From an archaeon (GTDB lineage Archaea > Nanobdellota > Nanobdellia > Woesearchaeales > GW2011-AR9), in contig JAUYKZ010000006.1 of assembly GCA_030704845.1 (NCBI GenBank), positions 18,046 to 82,045 of the forward strand: a stretch of 64,000 nucleotides of DNA, given 5' to 3'. This document shows positions 32,442 to 45,596 of this stretch, one piece after another. Position 1 is the stretch's first letter. Each line of letters starts with the position of its first letter. Under the pieces are notes generated by a model. It saw nothing but the letters and a program-made list of their open reading frames with translations. It had not been told where the DNA came from and made no database searches. Position numbers and translations under genes: made by a program.

Positions 32442-33545
32442 TTAAATATCTTTCCGTGAGAATTTTAATTCCCAAAGTAAGCGGTTAATCACGGCTTTCT
32501 GGGAAACAATACCTGAGAGTTTACCTTTCTCCATTACCGGAAGTACTTCCATGTTTCTTTCAGAGAATAAGCGGAAAGCATCATAAACCGATTGGGAAGG
32601 TTTCAAGGAATCCACTGAATTATAACCTGGAGTGATTTGGCGAAGAGTAATCCTTGATTGAATCTTTGGAGGCACTTTTGAGATTTGTTTTATATCAAGT
32701 AATCCAAGAAAATTTTTTCCTTTCACAACAAAAACATCCACTTCAGTATTTTTATATTTCTGAAGGAAATTACTGAAACTCATGCTGGGATCTAATGTAA
32801 GAAATTTTTTCTGAATTAATTCTTTAAGAGAGATTTTACCTAGAGCTTCCTTGATAACAACCTGTTCATAACTTGCACCGGCAATGAAATATAAAAACAT
32901 CCCAATAAGAATAAACCAAAGACCACCACCACTAAAGGTAAGTATTCCAAGAACGATAAGTAGTAGTGCTACAATTCTTCCACCATAAGAAGCTATCCTG
33001 GTAGCTTTTCGTAGATCTTTATAATGCCAAAATAATATTGCTCTAAAGGCTCTTCCACCATCTAAAGGATATCCTGGTACAAGATTAAATGCTCCAACAA
33101 TGAAATTTATTTGGTAAAGGTAATATGATATGGCATGAAGATATCCATTTCCATTAAAGGCATAGATCAAATAAAATAAACCGGCGATAGAAAATGAAAA
33201 TATTGGTCCAGCGATGGCCATCAGGAATTCTGAAGCAGGTTCAAGATCTTCCCTAGTTATTCCGGCAACTCCACCAAAAAAGAACAAAGTAATACTCTCA
33301 ACTTTGATTTTTCTAAATCTAGCTACAATTGAATGACTTAGTTCATGTAATAAAACTGAAACGAAGAGAAGTAATGAAGAGATAACTCCCATAACCCAAT
33401 ATTCGATAGAGGTATATGTCGGGAAGAAAACTGGAAAGAAAGCCGTAGATAAACTCCAGGTCAAAATAGCAAAGATAATCCACCAAGAATAATGTAATCG
33501 GATATCAATCCCTAAAATAGTAAAGAGTTTTAAACCTTTCTTCAT
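32442..33545 (-). CDS. Site-2 protease (M50) family metalloprotease with a C-terminal CBS domain pair
   Basis: HELSHSIVAR HExxH in a TM helix; multiple TM; CBS-like C-terminus. Confidence 0.8.
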   Translation of the reverse strand: MKKGLKLFTILGIDIRLHYSWWIIFAILTWSLSTAFFPVFFPTYTSIEYWVMGVISSLLLFVSVLLHELSHSIVARFRKIKVESITLFFFGGVAGITREDLEPASEFLMAIAGPIFSFSIAGLFYLIYAFNGNGYLHAISYYLYQINFIVGAFNLVPGYPLDGGRAFRAILFWHYKDLRKATRIASYGGRIVALLLIVLGILTFSGGGLWFILIGMFLYFIAGASYEQVVIKEALGKISLKELIQKKFLTLDPSMSFSNFLQKYKNTEVDVFVVKGKNFLGLLDIKQISKVPPKIQSRITLRQITPGYNSVDSLKPSQSVYDAFRLFSERNMEVLPVMEKGKLSGIVSQKAVINRLLWELKFSRKDI

Positions 33546-34620: not shown

Positions 34621-34904
34621 AATACTTTGAAATAAAATAAAGGTATAAATATCTTTTTAATTTTTTACAGATTGATTTAGACTGCGATCAAACTCTTGAT
34701 AGAACTATTATAGAACTAGTGATTGCTCATCATTAAAGAGCTAGGAAAAACGCAAATAGTTTGTTTGAATATAGCTAAAGCTAATTTTGAAAAAATTAAA
34801 AAAAAAAGAGTAATGAAAAAATCATTACTTGTTTTTGTAAAAAAAAACAAGAGGACAAAAGCCCTCTTGTTTTGTAAGGAAAACCATATGTACATTTAAC
34901 ACAA

Positions 34905-37800
34905 AAATTGTGAACGTTAGTAAGCGCATGCTGAATACCTCGTTGCCTTGGTACTTACACATCGCTTCTATCAAACGGCTGTTCTTGCCGTGTTCTAAGG
35001 TGTCTCTTTTCAAGGGGCACTTCGTGCTTAGATGCTTTCAGCACTTATCGCTTATAGCGTAGCTGCCCGGCGTACCTTGTCAGATAACCGGTCGACCAGA
35101 GGCTACGAACCTTCGTTCCTCTCGTACTAAAAGGTCCTTCCTTTCAGACACCCAACACTCCCAGTAGATATCAAACAAACTGCCTCACAGCGTTCTGAAC
35201 CCAGCTCACGAACCCTTTTAATGGGTGAACACCCCCACCCTTGGCAGCTTCTGCACCGCCAGGATAGGATGAGCCGACATCGAAGTAGCAAACCGCGCCG
35301 TCGATATGAACTCTCGGGCGCGACAACTCAGTTATCCCCGGAGTAACTTTTCAGTCATTCCCAGCCCTCATTAAGAAGGCATGGGAGTTCGCTAGGCCAC
35401 ACTTTCGTGTTTGAAGTTCTTTATGTTCGAATTTCAATCAGGCTGGCTTATGCCCTTGCACTCAACTCCGGATTTCTAAACCGGATGAGCCAACCGTTGG
35501 GCGCTATTGATATCTTTTCAACAGCGTGCCACCCCAGCCAAACTGTCCACCAACCGGTGTCCCTTCAAAAGAAGGTAAGTGATGTAATTCATGAAAAGTG
35601 GTGTTACATCGTTGCCTAAGCCAGTATCTGACGACATTGGCCTCAAACGGCTCCCACTTACGCTATATAGCACGAACCACAACACAGCGACAGGCTACAG
35701 TAAAGTTTCACGGGGTCTTCGCTTCCCACTGGAAGTCCCTGGCCTTTGCACCAGGAAAGTGTATTCGGGAGACTCTAGGTTGGGACAGTGGCGATCTCGT
35801 TACACCATTCATGCAAGCCGGCATTCAACCGGCAAGGTATTACGCTACCTTAAGAGAGTTATAGTTACTCCCGCCGTTTACCAGCTCTTCACTCCGTTGA
35901 AACGAAGCTTAAAGTACTGGCACTGGGCAGATGTCACCTTCTATACACAGCGTTACCGCCTAGCAGAAAGTTAAGTTTTTGTTAAACAGTCGGACCGCCT
36001 TTGTTACTGAGCCCTGACATCGCATCCATACGGATACGAAAGCAGGGATCCCTTATACCGAAGGTACGGGACTAATTTGCCGAATTCCCTAACCTAGATT
36101 AAACTCACACATCTTAGGCTTCTCACCTAGGGGCACCTGTGCCGGTTCTGGGTACGGTTACCTTGTATCTATCGTTGTTCCCTTTTCAGGGACTCCAGAA
36201 ATCAGCCAAACAGACCATAGGCCTGCTATTCTACAGTTTACTCTGGTTCTCATCATTACGATACTCCCCAGACTTATCTGCATTAACACTTCAGACAAGA
36301 AGTGTTAGCTTATCCCAAAGCGTCAGAAACAACGCTTGTGTTGCCACGTATAACAAAGTAGTAGTGGAGTATTAACCACTTTCCCTTTCCCGTACATCCG
36401 TTAGGAGTACAGTTAGGACCGACTAACCCTTGGCTGATGAACATCGCCAAGGAACCCTTGCCCTTACGATGACAGGGATTCACACCCTGCTAGGATCCTA
36501 CTCTCACCAGGATTTTCATTCCATAGAGGTCCACTTCTCCTCACGGAGAAGCTTCTGCCCTCTAAAGACGCCTGCCTATACCCACTTATCGTGGTCTATG
36601 GTATCGGCAATCAGCTTAGACCCGTCAATCTTCCGGGCCCACGACCTCAACGAGTAAGCTGTTACGCACTTTTTAAAGGATGGCTGCTTCTAAGCCAACC
36701 TCCTCGCTGTCTCAGATCACGGACACCGTTAACCCTTTCTCACTTAGCTGATATTTAGGGGCCTTAACCATAGGCTGGGTTGTTCCCCTTTCGGAAATCA
36801 AGTTTACCCCAAGATTCCCTGTTTCCCAGAGTCTACAACGTTATGGCATTCGGAGTTGGACAGAAGGCCGACAGGTTTCCCCGCCTAAGCTTCCTATCCG
36901 TAGCTCTACAACCATAACCATCTCGTCTGAGACTTGACTAAGGTCAATTTCGGCAGGAACCTGCTATCGCCGAGCTCGATTGGCTTTTCACCCCTATTCC
37001 CAGGTCAGAAGAACACTTGCACGTAGAACCTCTTCAGACCTCCACGAAGTTTTACCCTCGCTTCATCTTGCCCAGGAATAGATCGCTCGGTTTCAGGTCG
37101 TGTCCATGTGACTTATGGCACTTTCATACCACTCCCCTCGCATGCTGCGGGATCTTGCTTTCGCTTAGGATGCCCCTTTTCGGGTTATCCTCGCCACATA
37201 AACACACTCCCTGGCCCGTTATTCAAAACGCACGGTGGAACTCCTAAAAGCACCACCATACTATAACTACTAGGTTTCAGAGTCTTTTAACTCCCTGTTA
37301 AGGGTTCTTTTCAACTTTCCCTCACGGTACTGTTTTCTATCGGTTTCGAAACGTATTTAGTATTAGAGGTTAATGCCCCCCAGATTCCCACTCCAATATC
37401 GAGGAGTAGTACTCAGGATACTTCCTAAGACCTTTCTTCTTTCCTCTACGGGACTATCACCCTATAGTGTGTTCCTTTCCAGGAAACTTCGAGTCAGAAT
37501 TAAGGCCGTAAGAGAAGTCCTACAACACCACATCTCCATTACCTTACGGCAACGGATTCAGTTTGTACTGGACCGCTTTCAGTCGCTCTTACTAACGGTA
37601 TCTCGGTTGATTTCTTTTCCTGCAGGTACTAAGACGCTTCAATTCCCTGCGTTCCCCGGCTCCAAAGAGCCATCAAAGAGAGAAGTCTCATTCGGAAATC
37701 TTTGGTTCAAAGCTTACGTTCAACTCGCCAAAGCATATCGTAGCTTGTCACGTCCTTCATCGGCGTTTCGAACCGAGTCATCCACCTAGTAGCGTACCTA
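34905..37800 (-). rRNA. 23S rRNA; ends are approximate
   Basis: Sarcin-ricin loop AGTACGAGAGGAAC (reverse complement at ~35110); 5' GGTGGATG...GAAGGACGTG; perfect 19-nt inverted repeats flank it at 34885..34903 and 37807..37825. Confidence 0.9.
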
Positions 37801-37960
37801 GATGTGTTAAATGTACATATGGCTCATTACTATGATGTGATAGCGTATAAGATTAAACCCATACTCCATCATGTTCAACCATTGCCGCCAGGATTTGGCC
37901 ATTCCTGAAGGCACCTATTGCCCGTAACCTCTTTTGAGAGATTTTCGGGAACATTAAATG

Positions 37961-38054
37961 TGGACCCGACGGGATTTGAACCCGTGGCCTCCTGCTTTCT
38001 ATGCTTGTTAAACAAGCGTGCAAGGCAGGCGCTCTCCCCCTGAGCTACGGGCCC
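37961..38054 (-). tRNA. tRNA-Ala(UGC) with a 21-nt intron at canonical position 37/38; CCA not encoded
   Basis: GGGCCCGTAGCTCAGGGGGAGAGCGCCTGCCTTGCA[CGCTTGTTTAACAAGCATAGA]AGCAGGAGGCCACGGGTTCAAATCCCGTCGGGTCCA. Confidence 0.8.
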
Positions 38055-38148
38055 TTTATTGAGGATTGTGATATTTTTATTTGTTAAACAACGTTAACCT
38101 TCCATGATATCAATCAAATTTTTTCTCATGATATTGTGAGTATAAAAA

Positions 38149-39622
<1,474 letters not shown>

Positions 39623-42901: not shown

Positions 42902-43423
42902 TTATGCTTTTCGCAATCCCCGACTAGTCTTTGCAGAAGATGTTTTACCTTGGAATACTCTACTGTGATGTTTTTTATCCTGTAACCATTGCAAATTCTT
43001 GTCAGATTTTATAACCGGATGATGCGGATCTACAAAGATTATTTCAAACCAGTAAAACTTACCATCGTCAGCAACCCAGTATGAGTTTAGAACAGTTAAG
43101 TTAACGAATTTTTTTTGCGCTCTTTCTTCAGCAATTTGTTGGTAACTCTTATCAAGATTAAGTCTGATACCATATCTCTTAGGTCTTCTTCCACCACCAG
43201 GCTTAGTACGTGTATGTCCACCACGTGGAACTCTTTGTCTTACAACAACGATACCTTGCTTAGCTTTGTAACCGAGAGAACGTGCTTTATCAATTCTTGT
43301 CGGTCTTTCAATTTTTATAGTGGTCGGTTCTCTTCTCCACTGAATTAAGCGTTCTCGCCATAATTCTGGCATGTTTGTTTTTGGTTTTTTCCATGCTTCC
43401 CTTACTCTTTGGTATAATCCCAT
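42902..43423 (-). CDS. rpl15e: 50S ribosomal protein L15e (eL15)
   Basis: PTRIDKARSLGYKAKQGIVVVRQRVPRGG; VLNSYWVADDGKFYWFEII. Confidence 0.9.
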   Translation of the reverse strand: MGLYQRVREAWKKPKTNMPELWRERLIQWRREPTTIKIERPTRIDKARSLGYKAKQGIVVVRQRVPRGGHTRTKPGGGRRPKRYGIRLNLDKSYQQIAEERAQKKFVNLTVLNSYWVADDGKFYWFEIIFVDPHHPVIKSDKNLQWLQDKKHHSRVFQGKTSSAKTSRGLRKA

Positions 43424-43630
43424 TTTTTAGCCTCCAGTTTTAGATTCTATATTACTCATCTCAGATTCAGGTAAGCTACTACCCACATCTCTGAATGATG
43501 GAAAGAATTGACAGTTTCTTTAAAAAGGTTTCCTAAAGGATGGCTCATGTTCCAAATAGACGACAACTTTAAATAATCCAAGATTCATCAAATTAGATAT
43601 ATATAGTGATAAAAAACGAGGTGTGTCTTA

Positions 43631-44773
43631 ATGGAAATAACTCCAGCAATTAATACGAATTTTCTTCAAATAGATGAAAGCGTAAGTCTTTCTCAAATGA
43701 TTGGAAAACTGAAAGAATCAGATAAAAAATCAGGACTCATTTTTCAGAAAGGAAAGTATATGGGAATTCTTGATAAAAAAAGAATACTTCAAACAAAGTT
43801 AGATTCTACTAATGTCGGATTAAGTAAATTTATACAAAGAACCCCAATGATTAACGAACATGCAGATATTATTGAAACATCGGCTATGATGTTTAAAAGT
43901 AATATTGACCTTCTTCCAGTTGAAAGACAGAAACAAGTAATTGGAGTAATTTCCAGTCTTAACCTAGCTAAAATTGGTTCGCAATTGCCAGAAACATCGG
44001 CAATGAAAGTTAAAGATTGTACTTTAGATAAACCAACCTTAATCCAAAAAGATGATTCTATCGCTAGAGCAATAGAAATCATGTATCAAGAACACACTGA
44101 ACACATCCCAATCTTTGATAAAGGTAAATTGTATGGAATAATCAGTTCACAAGATGTTCTTAAAAAATATTTAAGTTGGCCTTCCCAAAGATCAGTATCT
44201 TCAAGATTAGGGAAAGGTGTCGGAAAAGTAACCAGAGGATCTCAAACAGACACTTCTAAATTTGCTTTATTACCGATAGAAAATTTAAGCACGAACCAGG
44301 ACTTGGTAACGATAAGTAGTAAGAGTAGTTTAAAGGATGCCGTGAGTTTAATGGTGAAGAAAAATATTTCTGCTTTAATTGTAATGGATGGAAATAAGTT
44401 GATTGGATTACTTCCGGTAAAAAATGTACTTAGAGCAATTGGTAGTTTAGAAATTCCAGAAAATTTCAACATTAAATTTGTTGGATTAAAAGAATTGGAT
44501 TGGCATTCTTACGATGTTACTGCATTGAAAAAAATTGCAGGTAATGAAGCATTTAAATTACAGAGAGCTCTCAAAAATGATTTTGATCTAGTAATTCATA
44601 TGAAAGAATATCAAAAAGATGCCAAGAAACATAAATACTCTGTTCACATGAAAGTTGAATTCCCTGGCAGGATTGTAACCGTTTCACAAGATGATTGGGA
44701 TTGGAAAACCGCGGTTAGAAAGACTTTTGCTAATGCTAAGAATAAAGTTGGCAAACAATTTAAAGGAAAATAG
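43631..44773 (+). CDS. Four CBS domains fused to a C-terminal ~100-aa domain resembling ribosome hibernation factor HPF/YfiA/RaiA (S30AE family)
   Basis: Four CBS-like repeats; C-terminal NIKFVG...FKLQRALKNDFDLVIHMKE...VHMKVEFPGRIVTVSQDDWDWKTAVRKTF aligns by eye to E. coli HPF (QLNITG...FAKLEQYFDRINQVYVVLKVE...LHVNGGEIHASAEGQDMYAAIDGLIDKL). Confidence 0.55.
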   Translation: MEITPAINTNFLQIDESVSLSQMIGKLKESDKKSGLIFQKGKYMGILDKKRILQTKLDSTNVGLSKFIQRTPMINEHADIIETSAMMFKSNIDLLPVERQKQVIGVISSLNLAKIGSQLPETSAMKVKDCTLDKPTLIQKDDSIARAIEIMYQEHTEHIPIFDKGKLYGIISSQDVLKKYLSWPSQRSVSSRLGKGVGKVTRGSQTDTSKFALLPIENLSTNQDLVTISSKSSLKDAVSLMVKKNISALIVMDGNKLIGLLPVKNVLRAIGSLEIPENFNIKFVGLKELDWHSYDVTALKKIAGNEAFKLQRALKNDFDLVIHMKEYQKDAKKHKYSVHMKVEFPGRIVTVSQDDWDWKTAVRKTFANAKNKVGKQFKGK

Positions 44774-44795: not shown

Positions 44796-45152
44796 TTATT
44801 GATTTTCATTCATTTTTTTTCTTCTAAATTTCTCAGCATTTTCTTCGCTAACAAATCTATAGATTTTTCCATCAATCTCAGCTTCAACCACATCTTCAAT
44901 GTCCATTAATGGTTCACCAGTAAGAGCATCTTTTCCTAACTGACCAGCGCCACTTGCGCCTTCCATGAAACCTTCTTCCCAAGAATCAATTTCATCGTCG
45001 TCTTCCAATTTCTCGCGACCTTCCTCAGTGTAGATATCTTCATCTTCTTCACCGTGTTCCATAGAATCTTTTTTTTCTTCAGAAGTTTCTTCCTCATCAA
45101 TGCCTTGTTCTTCAGCTGCATCGTATTCCTCTTCTTTTGTCTTTGTTGTCAT
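44796..45152 (-). CDS. Highly acidic protein with a C-terminal degenerate YHS/TRASH-like motif lacking the metal-binding cysteines
   Basis: IDGKIYRFVSEENAEKFRRK vs YHS consensus YKGKTYYFCSEGCKEKF. Confidence 0.4.
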   Translation of the reverse strand: MTTKTKEEEYDAAEEQGIDEEETSEEKKDSMEHGEEDEDIYTEEGREKLEDDDEIDSWEEGFMEGASGAGQLGKDALTGEPLMDIEDVVEAEIDGKIYRFVSEENAEKFRRKKMNENQ

Positions 45153-45374: not shown

Positions 45375-45596
45375 ATGAATGACAGAAATAATCGGCGGGA
45401 TAACAACCGACCACAAGGCGGAAATCAATACGGCGGCGGAGGCTTTAGAAGTTCAGGACCAAGCACAGGACCAAGAGAAATGCATAAAGCAACTTGTTCA
45501 GAATGTGGAAACGAATGTGAAGTTCCTTTCAAACCAACCGAAGGAAAACCAGTGTATTGTAGAGACTGCTTCAATAAAAGAAAACCACGATTCTAG
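45375..45596 (+). CDS. Small protein with a Gly/Arg-rich N-terminus and a C4 zinc ribbon, putatively nucleic-acid binding
   Basis: CSECGNECEVPFKPTEGKPVYCRDCF; GGAGG-like RBS (GAGGTTAAACGAAA ATG). Confidence 0.5.
   Translation: MNDRNNRRDNNRPQGGNQYGGGGFRSSGPSTGPREMHKATCSECGNECEVPFKPTEGKPVYCRDCFNKRKPRF

Follow-up and report, generated by a model that had tools for sequence, protein, structure and literature searches.

The ribosome hibernation factors HibA and AHA join a module of CBS domains to a domain of the HPF/RaiA type in archaea. HibA (Pyrococcus abyssi PAB0961 / Thermococcus barophilus TERMP_00697; PDB 9SR9-9SRF) was found on hibernating P. abyssi 70S ribosomes and consists of a CBS module (residues 1-269) followed by an HPF/RaiA-like domain (residues 270-392) (Madru et al., bioRxiv Oct 2025, Nat Commun Apr 2026; PMC13324472); AHA (Haloferax volcanii HVO_2384) was described independently (Souza et al., bioRxiv Feb 2026; PMC12934967). 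The support for both consists of cryo-electron microscopy on 70S ribosomes, inhibition of translation, and knockouts in T. barophilus and H. volcanii, in which 70S ribosomes or ribosomal proteins are lost and recovery after stationary phase is impaired (PMC13324472, PMC12934967). HibA is present in approximately 47% of archaeal genomes, spread over all major lineages, and standalone HPF-like proteins are present in a further 8%, mainly DPANN and Nitrososphaerales (PMC13324472); the AHA survey, which covered 6,968 species, counted 3,160 AHA homologues in 2,723 species of 17 phyla and 926 HPF homologues (PMC12934967). The subject of this analysis is a gene at positions 43631-44773 of a 64,000-nucleotide stretch of DNA (the window; contig JAUYKZ010000006.1 of assembly GCA_030704845.1, positions 18,046 to 82,045) from an archaeon of the Woesearchaeales, which very probably encodes a DPANN representative of the HibA/AHA family that had escaped annotation. 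The genome set examined for HibA contains at least 122 Woesearchaeales entries (PMC13324472), so this lineage lies inside the published survey. An earlier sequence-only reading of the locus had proposed four CBS domains fused to an HPF-like domain, an architecture that it took to be undescribed, and had called HPF-family proteins atypical in archaea. Its by-eye domain call proved accurate and essentially foreshadows what has been published on function, but three independent 2025-2026 reports cover the architecture, and the genome frequencies given above contradict the supposed rarity. Because the CBS-HPF fusion has already been published as HibA/AHA, the gene in the window is an ordinary, unannotated member of a known family.

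The program-made list of open reading frames (ORFs) gives 43631-44773 (+ strand) as an ATG-to-stop frame of 380 aa, and an identical protein is present in NCBI (MDP3989881.1) with the label 'MAG: CBS domain-containing protein [archaeon]', MAG being a metagenome-assembled genome. There are 82 full-length homologues with 41-77% sequence identity and lengths of 358-413 aa, except for one fragment of 223 aa, and thus the frame is a conserved gene and not a chance ORF. Those of the 82 that are named all come from Woesearchaeota/Nanoarchaeota MAGs, as do all 35 reference-genome loci, and the window is accordingly assigned to an archaeon of DPANN type. The gene and its parts are as follows:

43631-44773, + strand: gene of HibA/AHA type, stop codon at 44771-44773, supported by the ORF list, the 82 full-length homologues and the alignment of the family profile to 9sr9_H
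43631-44446, + strand: CBS module of four tandem CBS domains (residues 1-272), the predicted 50S- and adenylate-binding part, from Pfam, the structural model and fold matches
44177-44269, + strand: basic CBS3-CBS4 loop (residues 183-213), counterpart of the HibA 'PTC loop' and the AHA 'loop 3'
44456-44770, + strand: HPF/RaiA-like domain (residues 276-380), predicted to block the 30S decoding centre and mRNA channel

The profile of the family (A1) is colinear with the solved structure of P. abyssi HibA (9sr9_H; 2-375 versus 5-372, E = 1.7e-33), and it also matches a second solved CBS-domain chain, 9l96_a, with which a CBS-fused relative of the window protein (P0123) aligns across both modules. 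Pfam finds four CBS stretches in residues 1-272 (E = 1.6e-27), where the sequence-only reading had placed two CBS pairs. In the AlphaFold2 (AF2) model these residues form four beta-alpha-beta-beta-alpha units, with predicted local distance difference test values (pLDDT) mostly between 83 and 93, and the module, a disc of two Bateman pairs of approximately 270 aa at the N-terminus, is that of HibA/AHA. By fold it is matched best by SriA in its ribosome-bound form (9znf_4, E = 2e-19), by Dri and by AMPK gamma, and the MJ1225 tetrad is matched as well. The CBS3 motif G-I-I-S-x-x-D has an invariant glycine (G169) and aspartate (D175) among 46 orthologues, and S172 is Ser or Thr. The loop between CBS3 and CBS4 is disordered in the AF2 model (residues 183-207, pLDDT <50) and carries a net charge of +4; across the 46 orthologues it is 32-36 aa long and has the pattern W-S-P-K-R-x-x-S-x-K-F-x-K...L-P-V. 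It aligns with residues 186-208 of P. abyssi HibA, which touch nucleotides of the peptidyl-transferase centre (PTC) (PMC13324472).

The identity of the C-terminal domain required more than one line of evidence. The sequence-only reading had named a scan against PF02482 (Ribosomal_S30AE) and a fold search as checks on its HPF assignment, and had offered to abandon the assignment if PF02482 gave no significant match. The full-length window protein scores 13.2 bits and its last 103 aa score 16.8 bits (E = 0.012, profile positions 13-82 of 88), both below the Pfam cutoff of 23.7 bits. The direct scan having failed by that standard, the domain was tested in several independent ways. Scanned singly, 26 of 29 orthologous C-terminal domains match PF02482 (best E = 8.6e-6), and every other family appears in at most three of them. 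A search with a profile of the C-terminal domain (HMMER, exhaustive over 1.84 billion representatives) returned 723 matches at E <= 1e-3; the best 150 of these (151 stretches) include 51 proteins of at least 340 aa in which the match is C-terminal and 88 standalone proteins no longer than 160 aa, so that among the best 150 the search recovers precisely the two published architectures, fused and standalone. Two of the relatives that match this profile at approximately 2e-20, one standalone (P0122, 39.2 bits) and one CBS-fused (P0123, 34.3 bits), exceed the PF02482 cutoff, as do P0155 (29.2 bits) and P0103 (27.8 bits). Against the PDB, the matches of the narrow C-terminal profile are limited to four chains of bacterial HPF (E = 0.015-0.044), and a broad profile (A3) built from 46 diverse C-terminal domains and that of the window protein finds bacterial HPFs at E = 7.8e-5 to 7e-3; the remaining ten A3 matches, with E between 0.1 and 1, are five HPF-family chains and five unrelated chains. 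A phmmer search of the PDB with the C-terminal 103 aa found only chance matches to the NMDA receptor. In the fold search (Foldseek against the PDB) the top 25 matches are all HPF, RaiA, pY or PSRP1 structures, with template modelling (TM) scores up to 0.74, as the sequence-only reading would predict. The domain has a net charge of +9 and a pI of 9.76. By orthologue matches, intermediates above the threshold, fold and colinearity with HibA, the C-terminal domain has the HPF/RaiA fold and is homologous to the bacterial family, and the domain architecture, fold, homology and conservation of the window protein are thereby established.

Among the standalone matches, a 128-aa HPF-like protein (P0083) is very near the C-terminal domain of Woesearchaeal HibA (E = 1e-42). 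Standalone proteins of this type fit the published idea that the CBS module was lost more than once to give archaeal standalone HPFs; some standalone HPF-like matches may be gene fragments on short contigs.

The published list of P. abyssi contacts was mapped onto the window protein through the alignment of the family profile with 9sr9_H. Four contacts with 16S rRNA are kept or replaced by similar residues: Y317 by H323, which is invariant in the family, R336 by K341, H358 by R363, a position that is either R or H in the orthologues, and Q277 by K282. The core tryptophan W351 is kept as W356. Many further contact positions are not conserved, and posterior support in the alignment of the HPF domain is low; for these reasons the mapping is only a weak corroboration.

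In both solved complexes the HPF domain lies in the mRNA/tRNA channel of the 30S subunit and the CBS tetrad lies on the 50S subunit (PMC13324472, PMC12934967). The contacts of the HPF domain are with h18, h24, h28, h31, h44, uS7, uS9, uS11, uS12 and uS19 (PMC13324472, PMC12934967), and the archaeal complexes occupy the same 30S site as bacterial HPF (PMC12934967). In one of three conformations the loop that follows CBS3 is inside the PTC, around a universally conserved adenine. By homology with the P. abyssi and H. volcanii proteins, the basic C-terminal domain of the window protein would occupy the 30S decoding centre and the mRNA/tRNA channel, the N-terminal CBS tetrad would dock onto the 50S subunit over the A/P (or E) tRNA sites, and the long CBS3-CBS4 loop would enter the PTC. 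With its HPF domain on the 30S subunit, its CBS tetrad on the 50S subunit and its loop in the PTC, a single polypeptide would thus clamp an empty 70S ribosome, stop translation, and shield the ribosome in starvation or stress. AMP, ADP or ATP is predicted from the CBS sequences to be held, probably, at the CBS3/CBS4 interface. Binding to the ribosome, binding of nucleotides and any gating by energy charge are, for the window protein, inferred from these relatives.

Several observations, besides the low PF02482 score of the window protein itself, weigh against its assignment to the HibA/AHA family. The window protein has little sequence identity to HibA, and pairwise comparison scarcely detects the C-terminal domain: the match of the A3 profile to that domain in P. 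abyssi HibA (E = 0.02) is weak taken alone, so that the assignment of this domain draws mainly on its fold and on colinearity. Comparison of the narrow C-terminal profile by hhalign with one E. coli HPF sequence found nothing (probability 0.2%), a result made uninformative by a shallow profile (Neff, the effective number of sequences, 2.5) and a single-sequence template. The C-terminal tail of P. abyssi HibA (R376-E386), which contacts h23, uS7, uS11 and eS28 near the mRNA exit (PMC13324472), is approximately 11 residues long and is missing from the window protein, which ends at about HibA residue 375, approximately five residues beyond helix alpha2 (44759-44773). This short form occurs in 17 of 46 orthologues, and the other 29 have a longer tail, in many cases basic and aromatic. 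The window protein also has Leu193 at the position of the PTC-stacking Tyr195, where most orthologues have Phe, and Pro262 (codon 44414-44416) in its CBS4 motif G-L-L-P-V-K-N, where 42 of 46 orthologues have Thr. Finally, the HibA/AHA proteins studied by experiment are those of P. abyssi, T. barophilus and H. volcanii, none of which is a DPANN archaeon. It is very improbable that the window protein is a CBS-tetrad regulator unrelated to the ribosome, such as a transcription factor resembling HhpR, with a C-terminus that is HPF-like by convergence or that is related to double-stranded RNA-binding domains (dsRBDs). One homologue is titled 'predicted transcriptional regulator', some Joint Genome Institute (JGI) annotations suggest an HhpR-like protein, and the NCBIfam model of HhpR (NF053603) matches the window protein weakly (E = 4e-8), but with 32.7 bits against a cutoff of 520; dsRBDs do appear in the fold lists of the C-terminal domain, where they rank below the HPF structures, and the sub-threshold PF02482 score also counts on the side of this reading.

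Membership in the HibA/AHA family leaves a separate choice as to the role of the nucleotide, for which the sequence-only reading had proposed a gate on ribosome silencing set by energy charge. The CBS module of HibA binds AMP, ADP and ATP with dissociation constants of 12 uM, 65 uM and 113 uM, respectively, and binding of P. abyssi HibA to the ribosome in vitro does not clearly change with AMP or ATP (PMC13324472), which speaks against control by energy charge. In a HibA-type factor whose hold on the ribosome is not gated by the nucleotide, the tetrad would serve chiefly as a structural dock for the 50S subunit, and control would be exerted by the level of expression, by competition with tRNA and mRNA, or by a sequestering partner. 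This alternative, which contests only the energy-gating part of the proposed mechanism, is a serious possibility held at somewhat less than even confidence. It is favoured by the proposal of a sequestering partner by the authors of HibA (PMC13324472) and by the replacement of Thr by Pro at residue 262, which falls in the ribose/phosphate motif G-h-h-T-x-x-N of CBS4 and, judged by the motif, might weaken one adenylate site in this protein. Gating by energy charge is supported by the invariance of G169 and D175 and the restriction of S172 to Ser or Thr in CBS3, by the two AMP molecules found next to the PTC loop in native AHA-ribosome complexes of H. volcanii (PMC12934967), and by the related CBS-only ARC factors, which leave ribosomes upon ATP and are the only factors for which ATP-driven release has been shown. 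Gating of the window protein by energy charge is therefore weighed as plausible but unproven.

The surroundings of the gene contain the following features:

42902-43423, - strand: rpl15e (ribosomal protein eL15), divergent upstream neighbour, Pfam Ribosomal_L15e E = 1.8e-66
43568-43575, + strand: candidate archaeal TATA box, TTTAAATA, suggested by direct reading of the DNA
43618-43623, + strand: Shine-Dalgarno-like GAGGTG, 7 nt before the ATG, read directly, with its function presumed
44796-45152, - strand: convergent gene for a very acidic protein of 118 aa, the most consistently linked neighbour of the hibA-like gene

The hibA-like gene and rpl15e are separated by an intergenic region of 207 bp with AT-rich TATA-like boxes, and directly after its stop codon the hibA-like gene has seven consecutive T. 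The sequence-only reading was right that rpl15e is the neighbour, which is divergent, but the link between the two genes is weak. Searches with tblastn place rpl15e inside the flanks of 12 of 39 related loci, and the adjacency was rejected as a functional operon on the grounds that the genes are divergent and remain adjacent in only these 12.

By the same searches, the gene for the acidic protein is within approximately 3 kb downstream of the hibA-like gene in 33 of the 39 loci, while other neighbours are shuffled. The protein has 43 Asp and Glu residues, a net charge of -29 and a pI of 4.06, and its invariant motifs include EGR...W-E-x-G-F-x-x-GA and KDALTG-x-PL...G-x-x-x-RF...NA-x-x-F. It has 681 homologues at E <= 1e-3; no Pfam domain was found in the best 120 of these, and the named ones among the 120 are all 'hypothetical protein' entries from Woesearchaeota/Nanoarchaeota or unclassified archaeal MAGs. 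Its C-terminus resembles a YHS domain without cysteines (weak YHS match in 7 of 15 members, best E = 8e-4), and a search for a relative in the PDB found none. Synteny and opposite charge are the basis for the speculative and rather unlikely idea that the acidic protein is a lineage-specific partner of Woesearchaeota-type HibA, a sequestering or release factor that mimics nucleic acid; the two genes are convergent and not co-transcribed, and their linkage may instead be that of a block of genes with stable synteny. A sequestering partner of HibA was postulated, and not identified, by the authors of that work (PMC13324472), and the linkage of the acidic gene is possibly the sole new lead at this locus.

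Woesearchaeota-type hibA genes (44-49% identity), most with the acidic neighbour, are also found at 13 loci of MAGs in the third-party annotation (TPA) section under the name 'uncultured Methanosarcinales archaeon' (L010-L012, L014-L017, L020, L022, L024, L029, L030, L039); these organism labels look like placeholders or mislabels. The gene at 45375-45596 (+ strand) encodes a protein of 73 aa, rich in Gly and Arg at its N-terminus, with a zinc finger of the treble-clef family PF23477 (E = 1.6e-20), members of which are also encoded between rpl15e and hibA at loci L004 and L008. Elsewhere in the window, an archaeal rRNA operon in the order 16S-tRNA(Ala)-23S lies at 34895-39618 (- strand), with a GC content of 41-48% versus approximately 33% outside it; no 5S gene was found beside it at Rfam gathering thresholds. 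The tRNA-Ala(TGC) in its 16S-23S spacer (37960-38054, - strand) is 95 nt long versus the 71 positions of the Rfam model, which points to an intron or to a long insertion. Just one other ORF of the window contains CBS domains (32442-33545, - strand); it encodes an M50 site-2 protease that has a CBS pair at its C-terminus, and it was set aside as unrelated to hibernation factors.

The CBS-HPF fusion joins a hibernation module common to bacteria and archaea to an adenylate sensor like that of AMPK gamma, and its significance was already established in 2025-2026 for Thermococcales and Haloferax. The locus in the window adds a divergent DPANN orthologue, annotated until now merely as 'CBS domain-containing protein', and the acidic 118-aa protein as a candidate linked gene. 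The conservation of the hibA-like gene over Woesearchaeota/Nanoarchaeota MAGs is consistent with the retention of ribosome hibernation by DPANN archaea with reduced genomes.

Among known systems, AMPK gamma shares with the window protein a disc of four CBS domains with adenylate sites (TM approximately 0.55 on the query and 0.65-0.70 on the target), but it belongs to a heterotrimeric kinase and lacks a ribosome-binding domain, and the likeness is of fold and ligand class only. Bacterial HPF/RaiA (YfiA, pY) and plastid PSRP1 are homologous to the C-terminal domain at the level of the PF02482 profile. Bacterial HPF is either standalone or followed by a C-terminal dimerisation domain (long HPF) and has no CBS module, whereas the domain in the window protein follows a CBS tetrad, is longer in its beta2-beta3 hairpins and in alpha1, and scores below the PF02482 cutoff; it thus has neither the score nor either arrangement of a bacterial HPF. 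The nearest fold to the CBS tetrad is that of SriA (TM 0.82 on the target for 9znf_4), one of the SriA-D / ARC-A,P factors of Methanosarcina and Methanolobus. The Sri/ARC factors are separate CBS-only proteins and Dri of Pyrobaculum is a double CBS tetrad, none of them with an HPF domain, in contrast to the window protein, which carries one and so falls outside the CBS-only class. Published trees derive the CBS module of HibA/AHA from a SriA-like or CM-5 ancestor, and published phyletic patterns indicate that CBS-only factors and HibA largely exclude each other. The closest system is HibA/AHA, which is archaeal and has its parts in the same order and of the same size as the window protein: a CBS tetrad of approximately 270 aa with a long CBS3-CBS4 loop, a short linker, and a basic C-terminal HPF/RaiA domain of approximately 105-120 aa.
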